A stretch of DNA of 64,000 nucleotides from a virus (Duplodnaviria > Caudoviricetes): IMG/VR virus record IMGVR_UViG_3300037297_000386; one strand, 5' to 3'. The position numbers and the translations under genes were made by a program. This document shows, piece after piece, positions 1 through 17,149 of this stretch. The notes under the pieces are model-generated. The model saw only the letters and a program-made list of their open reading frames with translations, searched no databases and was not told the DNA's origin. Each line of letters starts with the position of its first letter. The stretch's first letter is position 1.

Positions 1-201
1 ACCTTTATATTTTGATATATGTACACCGGTAGGTTTATGATATTCTATTTGGTTAGTCCTTGAATTATAGCAAGCTATTTTAAGATTAGGTTTTACTTTA
101 GCTGAAATTACTTCTCCGTTTTTGTCAGTCTGAAAATCTATTCCATCAATTCCTTTTATAATTCCATTTTCTGTAATAATCTCTGTATCTTGTGAATAAC
201 A
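1..201 (-). mobile_element. Intein, N-terminal part, in the portal gene
   Basis: After KLRE the frame reads CYSQDTEIITENG...KIACYNSRTNQIEYHKPTGVHISKYKG, matching the intein block A (C-x-x-x-D-T-x-I-x-T-x-x-G) and the following Hint-domain pattern. Confidence 0.85.
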
Positions 202-1200
202 CTCGCGTAATTTGTCATATAGCATTAAATCTTTATATATGCTGACAATTGGAGAAGTTCCATGTATTCCATATGAAGAGGTTAACATTTTCAAATGGCT
301 AACATGAAAATTATCCAACGGAATGTTGTTCCCCTTTTTAACATGATATAATATTTCTTCATCTATTTGTTTACGTAGCTGTATATCTGCAGGATTACTG
401 CTATGAACCAATCTTTGTAAAGCAGCGTCTGGTCGCATAGATATTACTGGGTCACCACCTAATACGGATGTTTTAACATGTATATAATCAGGGTTTTGGA
501 TAATTATATTGTTCCATATCCCTTTGTTTTCATCTAATTCAGCATATGGAAACACTTCACCCATTTTCCAAAATTCTAATGAAATAGATTGTAAAATATT
601 CACAAGATCTATCTCATCAGCCATATCTTTGAAAAATTGTTCTACTTTATGATCTTTACATTTTATATTTATTTTGCTTATAGGATATGTAGCATGCAAA
701 TTTATACAATTATGAACTAATGGATGGGTATCATAAAAATTCCTGTTCCACGCATTCATAGTTATACGATCCCGTGGTAATTGAAGGTTTGCAATCTGAA
801 ATAATGGAGAATATATTTCTGGAGCTTGTCTAATGGTACTTCCAGAAGCACCTAATCTATTTCCATCTGATACCGTAAGACCGGCCGTTTTACTAAGCCC
901 ATATGCCTCTCGTATTTCTTGAGATCTTTTGTATGAATTGCTATATACAATAATTGGGGACGGCCCAGATGAATTATTTGTGGTCTCAGTTGCTCTAATT
1001 AATTCTGTCTTTCGGTATTCTGATACGCCATCTGGGATAGATTCGTTATAAACAGAATTATCCCTATTAGATATATGATATTCTGAATTTGATACCCCTT
1101 CTTTTTTTAACTTGACCGAGCGAGCACCGTGGCGAGCAGTTTTAACAGTAGACAATTTATTTACTGGTTCTATCCTCCATTCTCCTCTTCGTATACCCAT
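1..1200 (-). CDS. Portal protein, interrupted by an intein and truncated by the window edge (absent from the ORF track)
   Basis: Hand translation gives a stop-free frame from ATG at 1200 to base 1 (MGIRRGEW...APEIYSPLFQIANLQLPRDRITMNAWNRNFYDTHPLVHNCINLHATYP...EFWKMGEVFPY...QNPDYIHV...LYDKLRE). It lies directly downstream of the terminase large subunit, where portal genes usually sit. Confidence 0.72.
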   Translation of the reverse strand, partial: MGIRRGEWRIEPVNKLSTVKTARHGARSVKLKKEGVSNSEYHISNRDNSVYNESIPDGVSEYRKTELIRATETTNNSSGPSPIIVYSNSYKRSQEIREAYGLSKTAGLTVSDGNRLGASGSTIRQAPEIYSPLFQIANLQLPRDRITMNAWNRNFYDTHPLVHNCINLHATYPISKINIKCKDHKVEQFFKDMADEIDLVNILQSISLEFWKMGEVFPYAELDENKGIWNNIIIQNPDYIHVKTSVLGGDPVISMRPDAALQRLVHSSNPADIQLRKQIDEEILYHVKKGNNIPLDNFHVSHLKMLTSSYGIHGTSPIVSIYKDLMLYDKLRECYSQDTEIITENGIIKGIDGIDFQTDKNGEVISAKVKPNLKIACYNSRTNQIEYHKPTGVHISKYKG

Positions 1201-1211
1201 CGTTTACCTCT

Positions 1212-3080
1212 TTATAACCCAGGCAAATATGCCAATATAGGTCCTGTACTTATTGCGTTAATCTGATGCGGTTTAATCTTAAACCCTTGAGTCAAATAAA
1301 ATTTATAAGCCAAATATGCGTACATCAGACTCATAAGCCCATCATTAGGACCAGAACCCTTCACATATCTAGTAATTACTCTTCCCTGAAATGTTCTAAT
1401 TTCTTTTTCCATTGAACAACAATGTTCTATTAACCACTGTATTCGTTCATAACTAACCCATGGAAACATGACTTTACTTTTTCTCATATTATTAAACAAA
1501 TCTTCCAACATTATGTGTGGATTACAAATAAGTCTAAGATCTTCAGAATCATATTTAACTGGGTTTATCAAACTTCCACTACTAAGGCAACCTATTACAC
1601 GAGATCCATATTCTCTTTGTAATTCTGGAACAATATCATTAGCATGTCCAAGGTCCGCTACAGCTATTTGAATATTAAATCTTCTAAACATCTCATCTAC
1701 TACATCTTTTTTGTGTTGAAAATTATTGCGTTTTAACTTAAAAGCATTTTCTATATGCATAATTCCATCTTTACTAACAGAAATAACTACTACAGATGAA
1801 AAGGATTTACCTCCTCTAGAGTTAAAAGTATCATTTTTCTCACCCCAGTCAATACCCATAAAAGTTGGCGAATAATTATTATTAACAACTTTGTAATTAT
1901 TATTTTTTTGAATTGAAGGAGATCCAAATGATATCTTCTTATTTACATCGCGACAATATTTATAAATTTCCTCTTCTGACATGGGTAAATCAGATCCACT
2001 ATAAAATTCTCCAAGAATTTCATTCTGCCAAATTCTTTCCGAATTCGTTGGATGTATTCCTGGCTTTTCCTTGAGTATAGTCTCTTTATGGAAAAATGGT
2101 ATTAATAATTGATTAAAATGGAAACCGACATATTGTGGCTCACTGCCATCTGGCAATTGCGTCTGGGACGAAACCCATTTTCCTCTTTCCACAGCTTGCA
2201 CCTTATCTTGTTGATGCTGACATTTTGGACACTCAACTATATTTCCAAATAACCATATCTTTTCCCAGTCATCGTTCCCAGGAGTGTATAACATAAAATA
2301 TTCTGAACAATTCTCACAGTGTAGATGATAGTATCTTTTATCAGAGGCATCCCACATTTTATGAAAATTGGATCCACGCTGCAACGGTGTGCCAAAATAT
2401 AATTGTATTCCTTGCCCTTTAGGCCCATATCTGGATGCAGTCAAAGTTCTTTTGCTATTTCCAATATCATCTTGATTCATACGCTGAACTTCATCATAAA
2501 ATATACCGTCTAATGACATACCATGAAGCCTTTGTGCATCATTGGCATTTGAATCGACCCAAAGTTTGTTTTCATTTTTAAATTGTTTTTCCGTAAGCGT
2601 ATCATCTGGAACATCTATCCTACGTCGTCCAGTTTCATTATCAAGAGACAATGATTGTTTTAGCACATAGTTATTGTTCGATGTTCGCATCATAGTACTA
2701 AGTTTATCTTTAGCAAATTTTTGTACTAATGCTAAAGCCGGGAAACAGTGTAAAATTCTAATTGGAGGCCTACCTATAGAGCCGCCAAATAATCCGCTGG
2801 TGCAAAAATATAACTCAAGGGCAGTGGCCATAGTAGTAGCACCAACTTGTCTTCCCTTCACACAAACGACAGGTTTTCCATTTTGACCTAATGCTTTAGT
2901 TGCAATATAACGATAAATGTCAGCTAAAAATTTCCATCCCGTTCCACCACCAAGTTCTAGCGGCTTTCCATCAATAGTAAGATATTCAGATGCAAAAAAA
3001 ACGGGATCTACTTTTAATACTTCTTTCTTTAGATCCTCGAAATATTTTTCTACTGTATGATTTGATTTATTGTTTACCAC
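1212..3080 (-). CDS. terL: Terminase large subunit (GpA-like ATPase, zinc finger, nuclease)
   Basis: Walker A-like KGRQVGATT, Walker B IFYDEVQ, FGTP motif, CENC...CPKC zinc finger, RNase H-like MGIDWG. Confidence 0.9.
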   Translation of the reverse strand: MVNNKSNHTVEKYFEDLKKEVLKVDPVFFASEYLTIDGKPLELGGGTGWKFLADIYRYIATKALGQNGKPVVCVKGRQVGATTMATALELYFCTSGLFGGSIGRPPIRILHCFPALALVQKFAKDKLSTMMRTSNNNYVLKQSLSLDNETGRRRIDVPDDTLTEKQFKNENKLWVDSNANDAQRLHGMSLDGIFYDEVQRMNQDDIGNSKRTLTASRYGPKGQGIQLYFGTPLQRGSNFHKMWDASDKRYYHLHCENCSEYFMLYTPGNDDWEKIWLFGNIVECPKCQHQQDKVQAVERGKWVSSQTQLPDGSEPQYVGFHFNQLLIPFFHKETILKEKPGIHPTNSERIWQNEILGEFYSGSDLPMSEEEIYKYCRDVNKKISFGSPSIQKNNNYKVVNNNYSPTFMGIDWGEKNDTFNSRGGKSFSSVVVISVSKDGIMHIENAFKLKRNNFQHKKDVVDEMFRRFNIQIAVADLGHANDIVPELQREYGSRVIGCLSSGSLINPVKYDSEDLRLICNPHIMLEDLFNNMRKSKVMFPWVSYERIQWLIEHCCSMEKEIRTFQGRVITRYVKGSGPNDGLMSLMYAYLAYKFYLTQGFKIKPHQINAISTGPILAYLPGL

Positions 3081-3859
3081 TATTGTTTGGCTCCATCATA
3101 TTTCATAAAATCAGCAATTTCATCGTCGTATTCTTCATTTGCATCAGTTCCAACACGTCCTACATCAGAAAAATTTGATTCTTGTATAGTGCCATCACTA
3201 AAATAATTCTTCCGATCTTTTAGATATTCTATAAGTTCGTCATCTGTGAAACTCACATCTTTATCTAGCAAATTACGTAAAAAATATATTAGTGAATGAA
3301 TGCTTTTTGTTCCACCACTATGTTTACAATGACTATCAATAGCACTTTGTAATTCTGGATTATTCTTAATTTGTCTTACTATCGATTCAGTTTGTTCATT
3401 AGCATGTCGTATTGACAATGGTTTAAAAGAAGTATAGGTATCTTTAGAAAATAATTCAACCAGTTTAGAATGTACTTTTTGTAGCGAATCTTTAAGTTGT
3501 TCTTCCGGAATATACCTTGTTTGAGCCGGCTGAGAAGTAATCCATTTGTTTAGTTCCTCTTCACTTAATCCTTGTTGTTTTATATGTTCTAATGATTTGT
3601 CTAATTGTTGTTGCGACCACCAAAATGATACCTGATAAAATGTCCGTCCTTTTCTCTCTATAATTTGACCAGTAATTATACCAGCTCCCTTGTCTGGATC
3701 ATTTATTAATTCTACCACATCACCTCTTTTCCATTTAGATTGTGCCCGTTTATTCAAATAATCTTCAAGCGAGTCATAAGAGACAACTTTACGAATAGAA
3801 GCATCGTATTTTTCTGCACGATTGGTTAATTTTGCAATGGATTTGATATATTTAACCAT
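3080..3859 (-). CDS. Hypothetical, probably head-associated protein with an SH3-like segment between two K/R-x-A motifs
   Basis: 259-aa ORF with LNKRAQ, then WKRGDVVEL...GIITG...YQVSF (SH3-like), then PLSIRHAN; acidic C-terminus; adjacent to terL. Confidence 0.45.
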   Translation of the reverse strand: MVKYIKSIAKLTNRAEKYDASIRKVVSYDSLEDYLNKRAQSKWKRGDVVELINDPDKGAGIITGQIIERKGRTFYQVSFWWSQQQLDKSLEHIKQQGLSEEELNKWITSQPAQTRYIPEEQLKDSLQKVHSKLVELFSKDTYTSFKPLSIRHANEQTESIVRQIKNNPELQSAIDSHCKHSGGTKSIHSLIYFLRNLLDKDVSFTDDELIEYLKDRKNYFSDGTIQESNFSDVGRVGTDANEEYDDEIADFMKYDGAKQ

Positions 3860-4010
3860 TTACTTTTGCTCCCTTTTTAAGGTTTTCTTCTGCCCAAAGT
3901 GACCTACATTCTTTACAATCCGACCTATATCCATCCGACTTCTGTTTATCTTTGGTAAATGCTGAATACGGTTTTTCTTTACAACATTTAGTACATTTCT
4001 TAAGTTTCAT
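3852..4010 (-). CDS. 52-aa zinc-finger protein resembling the N-terminal domain of HNH homing endonucleases (below ORF-track cutoff)
   Basis: Hand translation MKLKKCTKCCKEKPYSAFTKDKQKSDGYRSDCKECRSLWAEENLKKGAKVNG; same CxxC...F.K...KDG....CxxC pattern as the N-terminus of the HNH ORF at 46301-46822. Confidence 0.6.
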   Translation of the reverse strand: MKLKKCTKCCKEKPYSAFTKDKQKSDGYRSDCKECRSLWAEENLKKGAKVNG

Positions 4011-4012
4011 AA

Positions 4013-5227
4013 CTATTTGTCCACTTTAACTTCTTTTTGTGGTTTGTCTGGGCGAAGTCGTGAATAACCCATGTGTCTAAACTTGCCACTTTCCATTTTT
4101 TCTTGGTATGAGACTTCTATAACAACTACTTTACCGTTATCAATCTTTTTTCTAACCTCTTGCTCTTCTTCTTTTGGCAATCCAGATAATTTACCAACTT
4201 CTACCAATTTTCCATTATAATATTGATATGCAGGAAATACTAATTTGTCTTCTCCCTTATTATACTTATTTAATATAACCTCATCAGTCTTAGCTTTAGC
4301 CCCAGGTTTAAATTTGGCCCATTCACCATATGGTTCATTAGATCCTTTTGCACCATATTTATATTTCGAATCTTTTGGTTTTAATACAATACCTTCAGCG
4401 TTTACTTTTAATGCATCATTAATTGCTTTATCTTTGTCTGAATATGTATAATTATCTACTATCTTAATTGTATCTGTTCCTTTACCAATTAATTCTTTTA
4501 GTTTATTATATCTTTCAATATAATCCTTCTTGGTAATATCATCACCATTAAACCACAATAAATCATAAACATAAAATAATGCTTTTCCGTTACCACTTTT
4601 AATTTTTTCTTGTGCTTTCTCTGGAGAACTGTTAACTACAGTTTGGATATCCGATATAGATTGTTTACCATTTTTATCTTCCCATACAAGTTCACCAAGA
4701 AAAAAACTCCCATTTTCCATTTTATCTTCTAAATCTTTTACTAGGCTTGGCACATTTGAACTAAAATCTTCTCCGCGCCTCGTGTACAATTTAACAGCAC
4801 CAGCTTTATCCTTGATTGCCTGTGTTTTAAAACCATCTAATTTAATTTGTATTATTATATTACTATCATCATTATTTTTTAGAATATCATCCGGGTTCTC
4901 TAATTTTTTTAATTTCATCGGCGCAATGGGGCCAATTCCACTTGCATGTCGTAATGATAGAGGCCTATAAATAATATTAGCCTGTTTTATTTTATTTCGT
5001 GACTCTGAAGAACTTGACTCTGAAGAACTTATTGTATCCAAACCAACTTGCTCACGATAATTTTGAACAATATTTTCAACACTTTCAGATTTTTTATTAT
5101 TAATAGTATTTAAAATATCTTGGACAGATGATAATTCGTGTTTTGCTAATGATTGTAAAAATTCACAAAACCAATCACCGCCAGATTCTGACAACATTTG
5201 TAAGTCGTTGCGCGATACTTTTACCAT
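4013..5227 (-). CDS. lig: ATP-dependent DNA ligase with a ~95-aa N-terminal extension
   Basis: Motif I QIKLDGFK, III FLGELV, IIIa FYVYDLL, IV EGIVLK, V WAKFK, and a short OB domain (VEVGKLSG...VIEVSYQE...GKFRH). Confidence 0.92.
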   Translation of the reverse strand: MVKVSRNDLQMLSESGGDWFCEFLQSLAKHELSSVQDILNTINNKKSESVENIVQNYREQVGLDTISSSESSSSESRNKIKQANIIYRPLSLRHASGIGPIAPMKLKKLENPDDILKNNDDSNIIIQIKLDGFKTQAIKDKAGAVKLYTRRGEDFSSNVPSLVKDLEDKMENGSFFLGELVWEDKNGKQSISDIQTVVNSSPEKAQEKIKSGNGKALFYVYDLLWFNGDDITKKDYIERYNKLKELIGKGTDTIKIVDNYTYSDKDKAINDALKVNAEGIVLKPKDSKYKYGAKGSNEPYGEWAKFKPGAKAKTDEVILNKYNKGEDKLVFPAYQYYNGKLVEVGKLSGLPKEEEQEVRKKIDNGKVVVIEVSYQEKMESGKFRHMGYSRLRPDKPQKEVKVDK

Positions 5228-5237
5228 GATTATCCTC

Positions 5238-5414
5238 TTATATACTAATTTCTATTTTCCAAGTATTATCATCTGGACATTCATCTATTATATCATTGAT
5301 TTCAATATATAGCCTATCTCTAATTGGATCGTGGTTTATCTTATTAAATTCTTCATAAACCACTATATCATTGATTATTTCGTATAACTCCTCAGGAATA
5401 CTAATATTACTCAT
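5238..5414 (-). CDS. Small acidic hypothetical protein, 58 aa (below ORF-track cutoff)
   Basis: Hand translation MSNISIPEELYEIINDIVVYEEFNKINHDPIRDRLYIEINDIIDECPDDNTWKIEISI; fills the gap between two co-oriented genes. Confidence 0.45.
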   Translation of the reverse strand: MSNISIPEELYEIINDIVVYEEFNKINHDPIRDRLYIEINDIIDECPDDNTWKIEISI

Positions 5415-5426
5415 AATAATCGCATC

Positions 5427-6353
5427 TTAAGACTGGTAATTGGTTAGCCAATCCACACCATCGCCAGACGCCGGATCAGATGGTTCATTAATCAATCCTC
5501 TATCACGATATAATGGATAACCATAATCATGAACTAATTGTTGAATAGCTAACTCCTCACGGGAAGTAAAATTATATTTATTTTTTAATTTTTCATAAGT
5601 TTCTTCTATATTGCGGCCAGCAGATACCTTAGAATTTATCATTGTTCCAACTATTGCACGCTCAAATGCACTAACATACACATTGATTATTGGAGTATTA
5701 GCAGTTTTTTCTAATCCATCATTATGACGTATTTTCTCACTTTCACAACTCATGCACACAAGTGTGTCATTAATTGTATCATGCCACATTGGAGCAGAAG
5801 AATTACATTTATCGCAATGGCCCTCAGATACTAGACGTACATCCATCGAAGCCTTTTTCTTGCCTGTTAACTTCTTAATTTGTCTATCTAATCTATCGAT
5901 CATATCTTCCAAGCTTTTTCTAATCTGGTCAATTTCTTGTTCATCGATGACACCTTTTAAATCAGTCCTCATAGCTTTACTAATTTCACTATCTAATTTT
6001 TTTAAAAAAGCTTTGGCTCGCTCACATCCAGGGACAGTCTCTCCGGAATGTCGAGGAATTTTGGTTAATTTATCTTTAACATAATTTACAAAATCCGCAT
6101 GATGTCCGTCCTCTTTCCATGTTTTCGGTTTATCATCATCTGCTTTGGCTTCCTCAAATTTACACCCAGGAGCACCAGGAACTTCTAGAATCATCCCTTC
6201 TTCATTTGGATTTTCCTCTACTATTAATATCTCAGGCATATCGATATCATCTTCATCTATCACAAGATTTTCGTCATTTTCTAAAAGAAAATCTTGTGAT
6301 TCATTAACCATTATAGTATCATTTGTCATGTCATAGAAATTTGTCATTTCCAA
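5427..6353 (-). CDS. Hypothetical head-region protein (acidic N-terminus, helical core, CxxC...CxxC zinc ribbon)
   Basis: 308-aa ORF with SD GGAGG; CDKC...CMSC flanked by KKKAS and LEKTAN. Confidence 0.5.
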   Translation of the reverse strand: MEMTNFYDMTNDTIMVNESQDFLLENDENLVIDEDDIDMPEILIVEENPNEEGMILEVPGAPGCKFEEAKADDDKPKTWKEDGHHADFVNYVKDKLTKIPRHSGETVPGCERAKAFLKKLDSEISKAMRTDLKGVIDEQEIDQIRKSLEDMIDRLDRQIKKLTGKKKASMDVRLVSEGHCDKCNSSAPMWHDTINDTLVCMSCESEKIRHNDGLEKTANTPIINVYVSAFERAIVGTMINSKVSAGRNIEETYEKLKNKYNFTSREELAIQQLVHDYGYPLYRDRGLINEPSDPASGDGVDWLTNYQS

Positions 6354-6366
6354 TCCTCCTGGTTAC

Positions 6367-7299
6367 CTAAAACTGATTTCTTTCATATAATAATTGTTTG
6401 AATTTATCACGTTTTCTTTTTAAATATATACTTGAATTTTCATACATCCAATTTCCCAATTTTATTGAGTCATGTGTCGAATAAGAAATTTTATAAATAT
6501 TACTTTGTTTAACATATCGAACATTTTTATTCCCTATCAATGTGCTTTCATTTATATATTTATTTATGTTTTCAAGCATATTCTTTGTACCGAGAAAGTA
6601 AGAACACCAAACACTTGTTGTTTTTGTCTTACTTATACACCCATCTCCGTCAAAATAACCTCTAATAAAATGTTTTATATATTTTCGCGGCATCTCTGGA
6701 AATTTAAGTGTTAAAGATTTTCTTGGAGTCACGCCCAATGTCACTAATCTGTTACACATATATTTAGAACAAATTTCAAGCGATACACATGATTTATTCT
6801 TAGATACGTATATTTTATTTTTTGGAGCTACTAAATTTCTTATAGCAATTAAATGTTCTTTATCTTTTGTTGACAATTTAATTCCTAATTTAAATCTGTT
6901 TTTTGATACATTTCCATCGGCAGCAATGAAGCCTAAAATATATGCCATTTCATCCGACCATTTGTCAAAAAAAGAATGATCAATTCCTGGTGGCATTTTA
7001 TATCTATTTAGACGTCTAATTCCATTCTTTACTGCCATTTTTCTTATGGCTGTCCATGGGCGCTTTATTTTGCACATTATTTCTTTTTTTGTTGCAACTG
7101 GAAACAATTTCTTTAACAATTTTATCTCTTTTTCTGTCCACTTATTATATTGATTATGTTTTTTAATACCTAACAAGTTAGCTCGCCTTTTAACAGAATT
7201 ATAACTACGACTTAATTTCTTTGCTATATTTTTACAAGATTCTTTTTTATAATTATTTATGATATAATTATCTTCTTCTTTGGCCCATATTTTACGCAT
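6367..7299 (-). mobile_element. Free-standing double-motif LAGLIDADG homing endonuclease
   Basis: AYILGFIAADGNV and HFIRGYFDGDGCI motifs; N-terminal repeats with W-x-x-x-E spacing. Confidence 0.9.
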
Positions 7300-7307
7300 A
7301 TTAAACC

Positions 7308-7997
7308 TTATCTATTTACCTGGCGTGGGCCAAACCATTTATCAGAAAGATGATATAACAAGCCTGTATCAGACCTTTTGTTTTCATATTTTTGCCTTTG
7401 TTTGGACAAGTACTTTTCAACTTTATCAAATGTTTTAGTATATTCTTCTTTTATCTTTTCTAATTTTATTAATAAGTTTTGTAATAAATCATCTTTTTCT
7501 GGTTTATCACATTTATCGTAATATTTCACACTTAATTTAACAAAATTGTTTATTTCGCGTCCTAATAAACTAAATAATCCAAAGAATAGATTACGACTCT
7601 CATTGTTGTCGGCATAAAAGCCTAAAGGATATCCATATAATCCATCTAATCCTATTCCATGAAAAGTTTGTGGAAATAATGGACTGCCTCTAAAAGCAGG
7701 GACTCTTTTGCCAGCCGCAGTATCGCCAAAATCACAATCTACCTTTCCATATTCATCTAATATTTTATCAGCATATGGACACTTACGACATTCTTTATGA
7801 TAAGCATAAACCAGTCTATTTGCTTTAGCTATTCCATCTGATTCTTTTTCATCCTCAATTGGTGCCATTCTTATAATAGAGTTTCCAGCATTTTCACAAC
7901 CCTCTGGAATCGGTAATCCAAATGGGCAATTACGAACATTTTTACCACGAATTGTTGACTCTTTTACAACAACAGATATGCATTCTGTTCTATTCAT
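7308..7997 (-). CDS. Cys-rich hypothetical protein
   Basis: 229-aa ORF; CPFGLPIPEGC, CRKCPY, CDFG; overlaps its upstream neighbour. Confidence 0.5.
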   Translation of the reverse strand: MNRTECISVVVKESTIRGKNVRNCPFGLPIPEGCENAGNSIIRMAPIEDEKESDGIAKANRLVYAYHKECRKCPYADKILDEYGKVDCDFGDTAAGKRVPAFRGSPLFPQTFHGIGLDGLYGYPLGFYADNNESRNLFFGLFSLLGREINNFVKLSVKYYDKCDKPEKDDLLQNLLIKLEKIKEEYTKTFDKVEKYLSKQRQKYENKRSDTGLLYHLSDKWFGPRQVNR

Positions 7998-8487
7998 TGT
8001 GACTCCAATAATCTAAATTAGAACGCCAAAAAGATGGGGCAGTATCTTCACACTCATCGCCACCTTTATCGCCTTTATTACTTTTTGATTTATCTTTAGC
8101 AATTTTAGTAGAATTATACTCGATCGAACCCCTAATGCCAGCGACAGAATTAGAATCTGGAACATCCTTGTAATCATTTTTACCAAATAATCTAGAAATA
8201 GCAGCCCAACTTTTACCAGTTATTTCTCTAACTAAATTCTCAAAGTTTGATCGATCATTTGCATCATCCGCGGATTGTGCTGTTTGTTGCTGTATTTTGG
8301 ACTTCATTTGCTCTAACGATGTAACTTGGGTTTCTATATTTCTTATTAATTCATTAACCATATTCAGCTGATTTGGAAGATCCCTAAGCATAGGAGACAA
8401 TCTGTTTAATTCATTTTTTAATGTTTGAATATTTTGCATTGTCGTGGTAGAAGCCATATCTTGCGCAAGTTTGGAAATTCTTTTCAT
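7990..8487 (-). CDS. Hypothetical coiled-coil protein
   Basis: 165-aa ORF; N-terminal ISKLAQ then heptad-rich segment. Confidence 0.45.
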   Translation of the reverse strand: MKRISKLAQDMASTTTMQNIQTLKNELNRLSPMLRDLPNQLNMVNELIRNIETQVTSLEQMKSKIQQQTAQSADDANDRSNFENLVREITGKSWAAISRLFGKNDYKDVPDSNSVAGIRGSIEYNSTKIAKDKSKSNKGDKGGDECEDTAPSFWRSNLDYWSHNE

Positions 8488-9255
8488 TTAAAGGGCCCTC
8501 ACTAATCGTCTTTGTTGTATTAGTATATCAGAAAGTGTTTTGGTTAATGGAACTAATGGAAGAAGTTTAAATTTAATTAACATTTCAATACCATTGTCAT
8601 CATCTATCTTGGCAATTTCAGTTATTTTATCTTGCACAAATTTTACTGGAAGATTTTGTATTTTTTTACGATTATTTAACATAGCTGTTTTCAGTTTTTC
8701 TTCTATTTTAAATCCAAATTTCACAGCAAACTTTATAGCTCTCAAAATTCTTCTTGGATCAACACCAATTGTTATATCTGGATTAATAGGGCATTGAATA
8801 ATACCAGACTGTATATCTCCAATACCATCACCAGTTAAATCATATATTGAAGAAAAATCTAAACTTTCAAGGAGAGTGTTTATAGTAAAATCTCTACTAT
8901 ATAATTCTAATTTCATAGAATCTATATCTTTAACCCCTTTTTTTCTGAGATCATCTTCAATACCTGAAATAATAAAATTACTTGAAAAATCGATGTGTAG
9001 CCCCATAATATCTATTGAAGCGTGACCGTCATCATATATCTTATAAGAACTATTAGGAATTTCTTTGTTTAATTTTTCGGCTAATAACAAAGAATCCTTA
9101 GATCCTGTGGTTATATCTATATCTTTTAAATTTGACTTACCACTACGTTTACCTAATATTCGATCTCTTGGGATGCCACCAACAATAAAAGGCTTATCAA
9201 ACTTGGACACGCGGGCAATATGTTGTATTTGTGATAATAGATCATCAATTTTCAT
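8488..9255 (-). CDS. Class II nucleotidyltransferase (CCA-adding enzyme / poly(A) polymerase family), head and neck domains only
   Basis: IVGGIPRD, catalytic DIDIT, RDFTINTL, DPRRILRAIKF. Start placed at MKIDD (9255) to avoid overlap with the upstream gene. Confidence 0.88.
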   Translation of the reverse strand: MKIDDLLSQIQHIARVSKFDKPFIVGGIPRDRILGKRSGKSNLKDIDITTGSKDSLLLAEKLNKEIPNSSYKIYDDGHASIDIMGLHIDFSSNFIISGIEDDLRKKGVKDIDSMKLELYSRDFTINTLLESLDFSSIYDLTGDGIGDIQSGIIQCPINPDITIGVDPRRILRAIKFAVKFGFKIEEKLKTAMLNNRKKIQNLPVKFVQDKITEIAKIDDDNGIEMLIKFKLLPLVPLTKTLSDILIQQRRLVRAL

Positions 9256-9259
9256 TATT

Positions 9260-10729
9260 TTATTCCGTTGGTAGTTCTTTCTTAATTTTCCCAACTGGTT
9301 TGCTCATCAATTCACCAGTGTCTATTTGTTTAGTTACCGGCACAGATGGTTGTTTTGGTATAACAGGGATAGGTGCTTGTTCGAGTGTCTCATCCCTATT
9401 TTTCGTACCTGATCCACTACCACGCAATTTGGCTATTATATTTTCAATCTTGTTGCTTGCATATCCAAATGATTCTATCATTTTGGCTTGGGCATCTGTT
9501 AATTCTGGAAAATAACTTGCCATACCAAGATCGTTTAACAAAATATCGATACTAGCCAATTCACGTATCATATCACGCGATTTAAGCGATTTACTTATAG
9601 ACTCGAGACGATCTATAATAGTTTGTATAGTAGACATCTGGGTACTTTGTGGCGGTAGATCTGGATCTTTTGATTTTGCTTCTGGTAAAGATTTTAACAC
9701 TTCACTATCAATTTGATCTTCTGCGCACTTATATAGATAAGCGGCCCCTTCGATAAATCCACATTTGTTCATTATATTAGCAGAACGAATTACACAATCT
9801 TGTAAAGAAGCATAAACGTCCAATTTATTTACACTCTTTTCCAATTTATAAAGTTCGTCATACACATTATCTAAATCTTGTTTAGGCAAAACATCATTAT
9901 ATTTTTCTACTAATCTTTTAAAGGAGCGTAGTCGTGCTTTCATTTTATTTTTAAACTGTTTAGCCTTATGTAGCTCTTCTTCACGTTTTGTATATTCTTG
10001 TTTTTTCTGTCTTGTGGACATATACATTTTATCGTTTGAGCGATCTTCTCTATTTACCCAAGACTCAGGAATAGAAAAAGCTGGCTCAAATGCTTTCTTG
10101 ATGAATTCGGCGGTTTTCACGTTATATTTCTCCGCAGTTCCATCTTCATAATATCGCATCCAATTTATAAATTTTTGTTTTTCATCTAAATCCCAATTTA
10201 ACGTAAAATTATTTATTGCATCTTTACGATTAAACCTTTTATTATGTATAGAAGTATAAATATTCTTCAACGTGTTAATCCATTTATCAATGTCATAAAT
10301 TTGCCCTCTATCTTCTTTACCAGATATATTAGGATAAGCTTGTTTCGATAACTTATTACATAACCATTTATAAATCAACAATCTATAATCAGTCAAATCA
10401 TCTAAATTATAATCTCCGCCACGTCTATGTTCCATCATAAAATGATGTAAATCTTTCCTTTTATGCGGGTCAAGCTTTATACCAAAAGTGTCATCTAAAA
10501 TATCATCAGAAAATCGTAAAACAAAAAAATAAGCATTATAATCATCTTCATTATCTACACCTAAATCACTGGCATATTGGGCATCTTCAAGTAATTCATC
10601 AACCAATGCCTCATCTACACCATTTTGTGTAACTTCCTGAAGACGCTTTTTCATATAATTATTAATTGTGCCTTTTTTAAATGCTTGTGAAATTTTATTT
10701 ATCATCGAGTTCCTCTTCGAATTCGGCAT
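9260..10729 (-). CDS. Hypothetical head-region protein with several K-x-A motifs
   Basis: 489-aa ORF; LSKQAY, VKTAE, IKKAF, LYKCAE. Confidence 0.5.
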   Translation of the reverse strand: MPNSKRNSMINKISQAFKKGTINNYMKKRLQEVTQNGVDEALVDELLEDAQYASDLGVDNEDDYNAYFFVLRFSDDILDDTFGIKLDPHKRKDLHHFMMEHRRGGDYNLDDLTDYRLLIYKWLCNKLSKQAYPNISGKEDRGQIYDIDKWINTLKNIYTSIHNKRFNRKDAINNFTLNWDLDEKQKFINWMRYYEDGTAEKYNVKTAEFIKKAFEPAFSIPESWVNREDRSNDKMYMSTRQKKQEYTKREEELHKAKQFKNKMKARLRSFKRLVEKYNDVLPKQDLDNVYDELYKLEKSVNKLDVYASLQDCVIRSANIMNKCGFIEGAAYLYKCAEDQIDSEVLKSLPEAKSKDPDLPPQSTQMSTIQTIIDRLESISKSLKSRDMIRELASIDILLNDLGMASYFPELTDAQAKMIESFGYASNKIENIIAKLRGSGSGTKNRDETLEQAPIPVIPKQPSVPVTKQIDTGELMSKPVGKIKKELPTE

Positions 10730-11538: not shown

Positions 11539-12675
11539 TTAATTGACGACATTTAGAATTTTCTCCCTTGAGTCAAACAGTCTATGTGGTACAGAATAGC
11601 CAGCAGAATCAGGAGTTTGTGCAGCAACCGAAGATCCTGGATGTTCATTCCCATCATAATCTGTCCATCCAGTTTCCCAATTATACACCTGGCCATCTAT
11701 CGGGCATTGATAAGTATTTTCTCCAATCCTACCCATCATCACACCAATATGTTGTGGGCAATGACGAATGCTTAAATGCCCAGCATCTACATGTTGTTGT
11801 GTATTAACATGATGTTTATCTCTCCCTTCGCGATCTATCCTTTCTTGCTCAGTTTTCGGTTCTCGGGTTTGAAGGGAATGGTGATATTTAGAATCATACC
11901 TCTTGCTTTGTTCTGTATCACCTTCACCTTTATAGTCTAAAAAATCTTCAGCCTGCTTTTTAATAAAATTGTCTATAAGATTTGCCTCTTCAATTGCCCC
12001 GACTTTATCTAATCTATCGGCTAAATCAGCGAGTTTTTCAAATGTCTTGCCTGTAGCGCCAAGACTCAACTCCTGGTGTTCTGCTGGAGGAGGAAGAGCA
12101 CCTTCATCATCCTTTACACCATATTGTTCATAATGATTATCCAAAAGCTTTTTCAGATTATTCAGATTATTTTCATGTGGATGCTTAAAATACACATCCA
12201 AGAAAGTTAAAATATGATTTACCCAATCAACTTTGCCAAACTCATCTTCTTCTATATATCTATCTTCGTAATCTGCATGTTTTTGCATTTGATTCTTGAG
12301 TCCAGCAAATATTCCACCTTCTCCAGGGCCATATTCTTCTGACCATTTTATATATTTTGCTAATTCATGTACTAATTCATCATAACGTTCTGCCGTTGGA
12401 TTGCTCAAAAATTCTTTAACCATTTTAGGTATTGTTGATGATTGTTCTCTAGCACCTGGTATACTTTCTACTAATGGTACTTTAGTTTCTTGATATGATT
12501 CTACTGGTTCATATTCTGGTAAGTCCAAAGACACTTCATTTCCATTTTTTACTACATTGTTATTCAATTTAGACAAACCCTCAATTAAACCATCAATTGC
12601 TGCAGCTTTTTCAAATTCACCTTTCTCATCTAAATGATCAGCTAAAGCTATTAGTTCTTTTATATCAAATGTCAT
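11539..12675 (-). CDS. Hypothetical head-region protein with a duplicated helical module and a C-terminal Cys/His motif
   Basis: ELIALADHLDEKGEFEKAAAIDGLI and KLADLADRLDKVGAIEEANLIDNFI; CPQH...CPID near the C-terminus. Confidence 0.5.
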   Translation of the reverse strand: MTFDIKELIALADHLDEKGEFEKAAAIDGLIEGLSKLNNNVVKNGNEVSLDLPEYEPVESYQETKVPLVESIPGAREQSSTIPKMVKEFLSNPTAERYDELVHELAKYIKWSEEYGPGEGGIFAGLKNQMQKHADYEDRYIEEDEFGKVDWVNHILTFLDVYFKHPHENNLNNLKKLLDNHYEQYGVKDDEGALPPPAEHQELSLGATGKTFEKLADLADRLDKVGAIEEANLIDNFIKKQAEDFLDYKGEGDTEQSKRYDSKYHHSLQTREPKTEQERIDREGRDKHHVNTQQHVDAGHLSIRHCPQHIGVMMGRIGENTYQCPIDGQVYNWETGWTDYDGNEHPGSSVAAQTPDSAGYSVPHRLFDSREKILNVVN

Positions 12676-15908: not shown

Positions 15909-16367
15909 TTAATATTCACAAGTCAAGCACTCTTCTCGCATTTTTTTTAATATTTCTATTATTTTCTTATTATTAGCGCACAACTTTCTTATCTTCTTTA
16001 AAGCCCCTCCGTATCGCTTTTTTTGATTATTATAGTCTATATTACCCTGAAGTATTTTATGTATAGTAGTCTGATGTTTTCCAAGTTCACTCGATATCTC
16101 GTTTTGAGTCTTACCTTCTAAATACGTCATTTTCATTACTTCTTTTTGTTTATCAGTAAGACAGTTTTCTACCACATACATTACCTCACTAAGTAATTCA
16201 TTTCTAAGTTTTTGAAATTCTTCAGAACATGATTGAGTAGATAAAAAAGCACTCATTCCTTCTTCATTAGAAAAATTATTAAGCAAATTAGGATCAATAC
16301 TTATTTCTACATAGTTATTAGAAATATCTGGGTCCCCCGAACTACTACAGGTAAAATTTTTTGGCAT
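15909..16367 (-). CDS. Sigma-70 region-4-like HTH protein
   Basis: LTDKQKEVMKMTYLEGKTQNEISSELGKHQTTIHKIL; no region 2 recognisable. Confidence 0.7.
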   Translation of the reverse strand: MPKNFTCSSSGDPDISNNYVEISIDPNLLNNFSNEEGMSAFLSTQSCSEEFQKLRNELLSEVMYVVENCLTDKQKEVMKMTYLEGKTQNEISSELGKHQTTIHKILQGNIDYNNQKKRYGGALKKIRKLCANNKKIIEILKKMREECLTCEY

Positions 16368-16381
16368 TCATTCCTCCTAAT

Positions 16382-17149
16382 TTACCATAATGTTTTTATT
16401 TCCACATTATCAAAATTTGTCCTTTCTCCAGTAAATAATTTTATATCGCCGCCCTTACGCAAATATTCATCCAAATCCTTATACCCACGCGGAGTAAACT
16501 CATACGTTAGATTGATATGCTCAGTGCGACCAAATCTATTCATAACTTTACTAGCACTAGTCTTACCAGCTTCGTCATTATCAAAAAGTAAACATATATT
16601 ATTAGTATATCTAGACAAAATAATTAATTGTCTTTCTGAAAATATTGTTCCACAAGTTGCAACAACATTATAAATGCCTTTTTGATGGGCCATTATTTTA
16701 TCAAAATAACCTTCTACAACAAATACTTTATTTGTTTCACGAATTGATTCTATTGAATGATCTAATCCAAACAAATAAGATGTTTTTTTATAAGAACTAT
16801 TTCTATATTTTGGTACTCCTAGACGCTTACGTTTTTTATTACTCAAAAGTGTTCTTGCACCAATAGCAACTGGAACACCACTAGTATTGCATATTGGAAT
16901 TACAATAGGATATATTTTAAATTGGCTATGATCAGCGTTCCATATTATATTTTGTTCCCTAAGTTTTTTTGGATCAAGATTATGATATTTATAGAGTTTA
17001 CGTAAATCTTCCGGAAAAGCACCTAATTTATAAGTACTAATTATTCTGTCAGTTACACCCCTGCGTACCTTCAAGTAGTACATTAAATTTTCACTATTTA
17101 ATAATAACTTATGGCAAACATTAGTTAATTCGACAAAAAACTGGTTCAT
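16382..17149 (-). CDS. dnaG: DNA primase catalytic core (DnaG N-terminal plus Toprim), lacking the zinc-binding domain
   Basis: YYLKVRRG, IVIPI, IGAR, PKYRNS, LFGL, VVEGYFD, VVATCGT, LLFDNDEAG, KDLDEY. Confidence 0.88.
   Translation of the reverse strand: MNQFFVELTNVCHKLLLNSENLMYYLKVRRGVTDRIISTYKLGAFPEDLRKLYKYHNLDPKKLREQNIIWNADHSQFKIYPIVIPICNTSGVPVAIGARTLLSNKKRKRLGVPKYRNSSYKKTSYLFGLDHSIESIRETNKVFVVEGYFDKIMAHQKGIYNVVATCGTIFSERQLIILSRYTNNICLLFDNDEAGKTSASKVMNRFGRTEHINLTYEFTPRGYKDLDEYLRKGGDIKLFTGERTNFDNVEIKTLW

Follow-up and report, generated by a model that had tools for sequence, protein, structure and literature searches.

Polyvalent proteins, which occur in phages and conjugative elements, combine a large number of unrelated enzyme domains in a single polypeptide whose gene lies near those of portal and terminase. 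Packaging, processing in some cases and an early action in the host have been predicted for them (Iyer, Burroughs, Anand, de Souza and Aravind 2017; PMC5512222). The word ligase appears just three times in that paper, and one of the passages concerns RNA ligases. The internal proteins and Alt of T4 possess a capsid-targeting sequence and are cleaved by gp21, and the cargo of phiKZ and SPN3US is cut by gp175 and gp245 (PMC3012670, PMC5694885, PMC10052503). The use of non-homologous end joining by mycobacteriophages for circularisation of the genome is also on record (Pitcher et al. 2006, as cited in PMC12848934).

We analysed a window of 64,000 nucleotides from an uncultured phage of about 312 kb (the ligase protein is recorded on a contig of 311,797 bp). 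The window is AT-rich (about 31% GC) and all its genes lie on the minus strand. One of them encodes a DNA ligase core joined to the N-terminal domain of a two-domain protein, called the carrier below, and a short conserved peptide, called the delimiter, marks the junctions between the modules. What is new here is the carrier with its cargo slot, the split of its gene and the link of the ligase to polyproteins punctuated by the delimiter.

The ligase ORF and its neighbourhood

The genes around the ligase ORF are listed in the order in which they are read.

8488-9294, minus strand: CCA-adding enzyme gene, upstream of the ligase ORF
7990-8487 and 7308-7997, minus strand: two ORFs without assigned function
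6367-7299, minus strand: LAGLIDADG endonuclease gene
5427-6353, minus strand: 308-aa ORF
5238-5414, minus strand: 58-aa ORF, directly upstream of the ligase ORF
4013-5227, minus strand: ligase ORF of 404 aa, ending with a stop codon at 4013-4015; it joins the carrier N-domain, a linker and the delimiter to an ATP-dependent DNA ligase core
3852-4010, minus strand: zinc-ribbon ORF (52 aa), part of the ~0.6-kb insertion splitting the carrier gene
3080-3859, minus strand: 259-aa ORF with a new N-terminal part, delimiter and carrier C-domain, ending in a stop codon that overlaps the start of terL
1212-3080, minus strand: terL, large terminase with gpA-type ATPase, immediately downstream of the carrier gene
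1-1200, minus strand: 5' part of the portal gene, running off the window

The primase, UvsX, RuvC and DNA polymerase genes were located 11 to 20 kb upstream of the ligase ORF. The nearest recognisable replication gene is that of the primase (16382-17149), 11.2 kb away, which agrees with the initial annotation in placing the ligase at least 11 kb from the replication enzymes. The same annotation put the ligase between terminase and head genes. This holds on the downstream side, where the terminase gene was found, but not upstream, where the genes at 5.4-15.2 kb gave no PHROG or Pfam head matches. A search of the window for paralogues of the zinc-ribbon ORF, of the 143-aa part of ORF 3080-3859 and of either carrier domain gave no match. 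Among cultured phages, the ligase and TerL had only distant matches (22-29% identity).

The ORF at 4013-5227 is present as annotated and its first 96 aa are indeed not ligase-like, since the ligase matches in Pfam, PHROG and PDB begin only at aa 96-103. Pfam DNA_ligase_A_M (PF01068) covers aa 103-307 (E 3.5e-30, full model 1-204) and PHROG 114 covers aa 98-403 (E 2e-29). The PDB ligases align from aa 96-100 onward, with aa 100 facing residue 221 of the Pyrococcus enzyme. The N-terminal segment does not qualify as a standard ligase DNA-binding domain, as the Pfam search gave no match to that domain (PF04675) in aa 1-96. The catalytic motifs K129-LDG, LGELV (at 177), FYVYD (218), EGIVLK (278) and WAKFK (303) were all located, and motif VI (RLRPDK) was read from the translation near aa 390. 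In the model of P0003, a protein 75% identical to the window ligase, the pLDDT of the core is above 90. The Foldseek matches were archaeal, LigD, ASFV and human ligases (E 3e-20 to 1e-16, of the order of 1e-20 for the archaeal and LigD enzymes), and in sequence the window ligase resembles archaeal ligases and LigD equally. Judged from its sequence, the 404-aa ORF holds a complete ATP-dependent DNA ligase module, for which nick sealing is predicted. It shares the two-domain core, the six motifs and the lack of a large N-terminal DNA-binding domain with the minimal viral ATP-dependent ligases of the Chlorella virus and T7 type. Whereas these enzymes consist of the adenylation and OB domains only, the window core is embedded between carrier domains which are also found without a ligase.

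The carrier family and the split of its gene

The ligase ORF and the 259-aa ORF can be divided into the following modules.

5033-5227, minus strand: carrier N-domain (aa 1-65), small and helical, conserved in the N+C family; helices predicted at low to moderate pLDDT
4967-5032, minus strand: Ser-rich variable linker (aa 66-87) with a conserved K-x-A island (IKQAN); pLDDT below 50 in the P0003 model
4940-4966, minus strand: N-junction delimiter RPLSLRHAS (aa 88-96), with RHA at 4943-4951
4016-4939, minus strand: ligase core (aa 97-404), nucleotidyltransferase and OB domains with motifs I (K129), III, IIIa, IV, V and the RLRPDK motif VI
3743-3757, minus strand: delimiter-like LNKRA (aa 35-39 of the 259-aa ORF), marking the edge of an additional module which P0072 lacks, as seen when P0071, P0072 and P0073 are compared
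3431-3739, minus strand: inserted module (aa 41-143), shared with P0073; no Pfam or PHROG match
3398-3424, minus strand: C-junction delimiter KPLSIRHAN (aa 146-154 of ORF 3080-3859)
3083-3397, minus strand: carrier C-domain, modelled as a four-helix bundle (pLDDT 72-91), with an acidic disordered tail ending ..ADF..GAKQ

Residues 1-96 of the ligase ORF and residues 143-259 of ORF 3080-3859 align with proteins of L019, L020, L021 and P0074. These proteins (L019:7339-7917, L020:5472-6047, L021:7545-8117 and P0074) have no ligase and consist of the N-domain, one delimiter and the C-domain (N+C proteins). The ligase-less N+C gene occupies the same slot in L019, L020 and L021, and in the first two it was seen to lie before terL. 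A search with the N+C profile against 1.84 billion representatives yielded 151 clusters, and P0071 was recovered at E 5e-47.

We have grouped all the homologous proteins collected here into six architecture classes. The default form is the contiguous N+C protein (at least 80 members of about 175-235 aa, typically ~190 aa). Non-ligase inserts (DUF5661, zinc ribbons, cupin, unknowns) are present in 32 carriers, 27 proteins combine the ligase with both N- and C-domains, and 4 split forms contain the ligase and the N-domain only. The remaining classes are 23 C-only proteins and 6 N-only proteins, among them P0125, in which the N-domain and a delimiter are followed by repeat-rich cargo. The N-domain is thus not bound to the ligase: more than 100 proteins have it without a ligase. 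Since many relatives possess the N+C protein without the ligase or with other inserts, the ligase is optional cargo in a conserved carrier. What had been described as a head-protein-like leader is the N half of this two-domain carrier, and nothing links it to head proteins. The search with the N-terminal part alone, suggested in the initial annotation, had a positive outcome, as this part recurs both without the ligase and with other cargo in related phages.

The carrier gene was found directly upstream of terL in the window and in L002, L004, L005, L006, L019, L020 and G002. The last of these, a 302-kb record, shows synteny with the window from polymerase to portal, and its carrier, located in the same slot, has DUF5661 and cupin as cargo. 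Pfam and PHROG gave no family for the carrier in any of 86 members. The N-domain and the N+C protein gave no usable match in the ESM Atlas, no PDB sequence match and no Foldseek match, and no relative of the carrier in cultured phages was detected by tblastn (E<=1). The carrier (N-domain, disordered linker, C-domain) is a conserved and undescribed two-domain protein whose gene lies directly 5' of terL across a wide clade of huge phages, which are AT-rich and uncultured.

The carrier gene always stands immediately before terL, the stop codon of one overlapping the start codon of the other. Small terminase genes usually hold this position, and no other small-terminase candidate was detected nearby. 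The carrier might therefore be a small terminase or a terminase accessory protein. The ligase, tethered or docked via the N-domain, would then seal nicks in the concatemer before or during packaging and the motif would stay uncleaved, serving as a binding peptide or linker. T4 packaging is known to need sealed DNA. The helical bundle of the C-domain, which weakly matches HTH-like folds (the G20C small terminase among them, by its N-domain, at Z 4.2), the acidic aromatic tail, which seems suited to partner binding, and the existence of distant carriers without the motif are all compatible with this role. It is the main alternative to a processing site, and we give it a low probability. The best fold matches of the carrier do not exceed Z 5 and are all within noise, and the occurrence of the N and C halves as separate genes or proteins would be odd for a small terminase, whose task is to link DNA binding with TerL. 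Moreover, cupin or DUF5661 cargo has no obvious role in packaging, and the same ligase module is found in a post-portal polyprotein of relatives, away from the carrier. Even if it is never cleaved, the carrier is a conserved unknown at the position expected for a small terminase.

In T4-like phages, topoisomerase and reductase genes are split by the insertion of mobile elements. The carrier gene in the window seems to have had a similar fate. About 27 homologues (50-75% identical) are single proteins of ~500 aa composed of the N-domain, ligase core, delimiter and C-domain. In these proteins, the OB domain is followed by R/K-P-L-S-I-R-H-A and then by a C-terminal domain of ~110 aa, which is homologous to the last ~115 aa of ORF 3080-3859; the C-domain of this ORF is homologous to the C-terminus of the N+C proteins as well. 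The carrier gene was uninterrupted in all five unsplit relatives examined (L001, L002, L004, L005 and L006), and terL follows it directly in the last four of them. As the ligase gene is continuous with the C-domain in relatives, it is the carrier gene of the window phage and of its closest relative that has been split. In this closest relative, the partners P0002 and P0072 occur on 21 or 22 contigs each, with an identical longest length.

The insertion of ~0.6 kb lies between the ligase core and the C-junction motif and comprises a stop codon, the zinc-ribbon ORF, a new start and a module of ~100 aa flanked by LNKRA and PLSIRHA. The 52-aa zinc-ribbon ORF, which is absent from the unsplit L001, L002 and L004-L006, matches Lar-like proteins in PHROG, and also the ribbons with which endonuclease VII and HNH enzymes begin. 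Because the insertion occurred after the OB domain, the N-domain and the ligase remain in one protein, whereas the C-domain with its delimiter ends the next-but-one ORF. As in the T4-like split genes, a gene which is continuous in relatives was interrupted by an insertion with a small endonuclease-like ORF, here the zinc-ribbon ORF, and both halves stay open and tightly packed. In contrast to these genes, the split in the window falls exactly at a module junction which already tolerates insertions, and the downstream half has gained new N-terminal modules.

The delimiter peptide

The peptides RPLSLRHAS and KPLSIRHAN at the two junctions are nearly identical, as was noted in the initial annotation. 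The best ungapped 9-mer between the two proteins scored 39 compared with 26.8 +/- 2.7 in 2000 shuffles, none of which reached 39. The pattern PLS[ILV]R[HQ] was not found elsewhere in the six frames of the 64-kb window. Only a 9-mer is concerned, which would speak for a chance likeness. We regard this as practically negligible, given the result of the shuffles, the recurrence of the motif across the clade and the homology of the surrounding domains, which explains the copy in ORF 3080-3859. The two ORFs go back to one ancestral gene, whose C half was split off into ORF 3080-3859, and the motif is therefore shared by descent. The interpretation in the initial annotation is partly supported: the N-terminal segment is a separate non-ligase module with a selected boundary. 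However, the motif in the neighbour results from the gene split, and the segment is not a head-protein-like tag.

RPLSLRHAS is kept in the four closest relatives (P0002-P0004 and L001) apart from one L/I swap, while its flanks vary. The clade-wide form of the delimiter is [LIF]-S-x-R-[HAQ]. In more than 30 divergent carriers, the linker is hypervariable except for the K-x-A island and L-S-x-R-H, with Ser and Arg each ~0.9 conserved. AlphaFold placed both P0003 copies and the single copy of the L020 carrier in linkers of pLDDT<50 which abut confident domains. The motif is also kept at the N-termini of the first modules in L006, L017, L018, L020, L007 and L034 and at the N-termini of split C-domains. 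A repeat or recombination site at the DNA level was considered and rejected: the Pro, Leu and Ala codons of the two DNA copies in the window show synonymous differences, and the Ser codons come from both the TCN and AGY families and the Arg codons from both CGN and AGR. These switches of codon family indicate that selection acts on the peptide.

The window ligase could also be an ordinary replication or repair enzyme which happened to enter a recombination-tolerant linker, the motif being a functionless remnant. Its catalytic motifs appear complete, no second ligase was seen within the 64-kb window, and a phage with its own polymerase, primase, UvsX and RuvC would benefit from such an enzyme. 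A remnant would hardly show the conservation of Ser and Arg within a hypervariable linker together with the codon-family switches, or still stand at the start of the first module in four orthologous polyproteins. Many relatives, moreover, have no ligase core at the carrier locus. These findings make an ordinary ligase quite improbable.

The conservation of the motif in disordered linkers, the gain, loss and splitting of modules at the motif and its retention at N-termini fit a processing site, which would most likely be cut next to the invariant Arg. Cutting would free the ligase from the N-domain, and the enzyme could then form part of a phage-borne LigD-like end-repair set, for which we see about equal chances either way. 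Proteolytic release as such is plausible, with the balance of evidence roughly even. The place of the ligase module in the cargo slot of the carrier is shown by the comparisons. The best overall explanation, in which the delimiter would in addition serve as a processing site, is one that we place slightly on the probable side.

Several observations bear on how general such processing may be. In most ligase-bearing genes, the N-junction copy has decayed (e.g. ..ITKSAS-GIGP..), so that the ligase need not as a rule be freed from the N-domain. The canonical N-junction copy in the window sub-clade looks like a delimiter travelling with the ligase module. Most cargo-bearing carriers have a single canonical copy just before the C-domain, so that functionally the motif might be part of this domain. 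In distant N+C members the motif is entirely absent, which implies that an undivided carrier chain can be functional. A protease site with Ala at P1 was rejected, since variants such as LSKRHK and ISQRHK have other residues where Ala would be expected and invariance is limited to Ser and Arg. Accordingly, a mature N-terminus at S96, proposed in the initial annotation, is not specifically predicted: the invariant pair is Ser and Arg, not Ala-Ser.

Delimited polyproteins of relatives and possible routes of deployment

The post-portal proteins of relatives resemble polyvalent proteins in containing several unrelated enzyme domains and in being encoded next to packaging genes. They differ in that one conserved peptide delimiter separates the modules and in that there is a second locus, the single-slot carrier before terL. 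The window ORF itself, unlike a polyvalent protein, has one enzyme domain only. Neither an MPTase nor an anchoring domain of the Mu-F/SPP1 gp7 type was detected with Pfam in the polyproteins of relatives. The 2366-aa post-portal protein of L020 contains seven clear delimiter copies next to the edges of Pfam domains, adjoining the topoisomerase IB, CCA/HD and 2H-phosphoesterase domains. In G002, three ORFs that follow closely on the portal gene contain all six copies of LSKR[AH], which span no more than 16 kb; five of the six have F-K or F-Y just upstream.

Among more distant relatives, the ligase module itself is found in delimiter-punctuated post-portal proteins of about 1,360 and 2,850 aa. 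A giant protein encoded after the portal gene opens with the ligase core in L007 and in G001 (locus L034), where M..PLSIRLAS or ..LSLRAS stands in front of the core; in G002 the ligase is internal in the polyprotein, with FKLSKRA behind it. The records G001, G002 and G003 each have a ligase and a LigD-phosphoesterase match, with the ligase in open frames of 3476, 2861 and 2728 aa, respectively; the presence of both in one protein was confirmed with Pfam for L007 and G002. In these two, the LigD_N phosphoesterase (E 6e-28 in L007 and 3e-27 in G002) is on the same polypeptide as the ligase, and a weak match to LigD_Prim-Pol (E 2e-3 and 9e-4, respectively) falls below the Pfam cut-off. The phosphoesterase of G002 (aa 2601-2704) is bracketed by delimiter copies at 2564 and 2724. 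The sharing of one polypeptide by ligase, phosphoesterase and a weakly matching Prim-Pol is reminiscent of LigD. In contrast to LigD, delimiters stand between the domains, further modules such as ASCH and DJ-1/PfpI are interspersed, and the window ligase is encoded by another gene. Ku (PF02735) was not found in five related records, which are 16-75% complete.

Spelled out in full, the proposal of the initial annotation would be that the N-terminal segment targets the ligase to the capsid, that a prohead protease cuts ..RHA|S in the head, and that the freed ligase is ejected with the DNA and seals or circularises it. The model for this would be the cargo enzymes of T4, phiKZ and SPN3US, which bear a short signal and leave the head after cleavage by a phage protease. 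The occurrence of the N-domain with other cargo agrees with such a scheme, as does the position of the delimiter-punctuated polyproteins between the portal and the protease-scaffold gene, a typical place of internal or ejected proteins. Precedents exist for its single steps, namely polyvalent phage proteins, for which packaging and processing are predicted (PMC5512222), and end joining in the circularisation of an incoming phage genome (Pitcher et al. 2006, as cited in PMC12848934).

The evidence from the motif runs against a prohead protease as its reader. In T4 and phiKZ, the protease recognizes one motif common to capsid, scaffold and cargo, and these cleavage motifs end in Glu (L/I-x-E or S/A/G-x-E). 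The motif of the present clade, at which cleavage is putative, is instead [LIF]-S-x-R-[HAQ], and it has no copy, even under a loose pattern, in the 1353-aa protease-scaffold ORF of G002, in the N-terminal part of its split capsid gene or in its scaffold-like protein, G002 being a relative and not the genome of the window. A genome-wide protease code was rejected: only two genes in the window bear the motif, the portal and TerL contain no copy, and the capsid fragment and scaffold of G002 lack it. In addition, the N-domain nearly always occurs with the C-domain, so that it frames the cargo rather than leads it, and Ala-Ser is not the conserved part of the motif. Cleavage of a capsid-targeting leader in the head is therefore rather unlikely.

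Delivery of an end-repair set with the virion, with which the preferred reading of a ligase in the carrier cargo slot could be combined, may be envisaged from the gene position and by analogy with polyvalent proteins and with the cargo of T4 and phiKZ, and we consider it doubtful. A broader and equally tentative proposal, to which we would give a low probability, is that [LIF]-S-x-R-[HAQ] constitutes a peptide code read by a dedicated protease. Modules would be plugged into two loci flanking terminase and portal, the single-slot N+C carrier and the multi-slot polyproteins. Their cargo, including the LigD-like ligase, polymerase and phosphoesterase, would be deployed at the start of infection for repair or joining of the incoming genome.

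If the delimiter is a processing signal, it would offer a simple and portable route for adding enzymes to a deployable kit, and a phage-borne LigD-like set would bear on the survival of restriction or CRISPR cuts by the incoming genome. The ligase module has been caught in three states, within a polyprotein, inserted in the carrier and split, which provides a handle on the shuffling of functions in huge phages. The annotation of metagenomes gains the N+C carrier family, now an orphan, and the delimiter. Among the polyprotein modules themselves, mere hints of a protease were seen in two places: the L020 protein ends with an HExxH module, and a DJ-1/PfpI module is present in G002.

Mobile elements in the packaging region

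The LAGLIDADG ORF and the endonuclease-like ORFs of the related phages are located as follows.

Window 6367-7299: LAGLIDADG homing-endonuclease ORF, flanked by the Cys-rich ORF and the 308-aa ORF
L004:10720-11928, G002:231895-232767 and G002:211794-213233: ORFs in which Cys-rich motifs recur and the C-terminus is endonuclease-like

The related locus L002 has the LAGLIDADG ORF at the equivalent position, and the ORF is missing from L004 and L020. Judged by this distribution, the ORF is a mobile insertion. In some relatives (L004 and the related 302-kb record G002), the Cys-rich/endonuclease-like ORFs are insertions that separate packaging genes, and they probably represent additional mobile endonucleases.

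Apparently interrupted portal and capsid genes

Window 1-165, minus strand: portal segment from aa ~346 onward, with an intein-like start
G002 185-200 kb (L049): major capsid gene, apparently split into an N part (192195-192860) and a C part (187659-188009; PHROG 2522)

The tblastn matches between the relatives and the window portal end at aa 349. The window protein reads YDKLRE followed by CYSQDTEIITENG, which resembles the start of an intein, and SKFAQADNLV is found at this position in L002 and L020 instead. Oversized portal ORFs were also observed in L007 (1001 aa), with a weak LAGLIDADG match, and in G002 (1402 aa). The presence of several endonuclease-like ORFs between the two parts of the G002 major capsid gene suggests introns or homing elements in this gene.

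Other modules and enzymes

Window 11539-12675; L025 ORFs at 8830, 9565, 10401, 10995 and 12584; carriers P0132, P0134, P0136 and P0168; G002:232755-234029: helical tag of ~28 aa (L..LA..LD..G...EA..ID..L)
L020:2897-3673; P0082, P0134 and P0168; G002 carrier: DUF5661 module (GxxVEMEHT)
Window 8488-9294: stand-alone CCA-adding/poly(A)-polymerase-family gene, upstream of the carrier
Window 15909-16367: small ORF matching sigma-70 region 4 (E 3e-7), adjoining the primase gene
L020:18552-18938 (= L025:10001-10387): 128-aa head-module protein, N-terminus MALSIRHMAG

The helical tag recurs in many of the proteins encoded around the head module and also forms an insert in distant carriers, the two-domain (N+C) proteins encoded next to terL. 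The DUF5661 module occurs both as carrier cargo and as part of a distinct conserved ORF located upstream of the carrier gene. A second CCA-adding/poly(A)-polymerase-family copy, with an HD domain, lies inside the post-portal polyprotein of a relative (L020:10221-17321, aa 1148-1491). The delimiter, [LIF]-S-x-R-[HAQ], stands at the very N-terminus of the 128-aa protein, and LSKRH and LSKRT were found close to the N-termini of G002:213260-213646 and G002:207820-208440, respectively.
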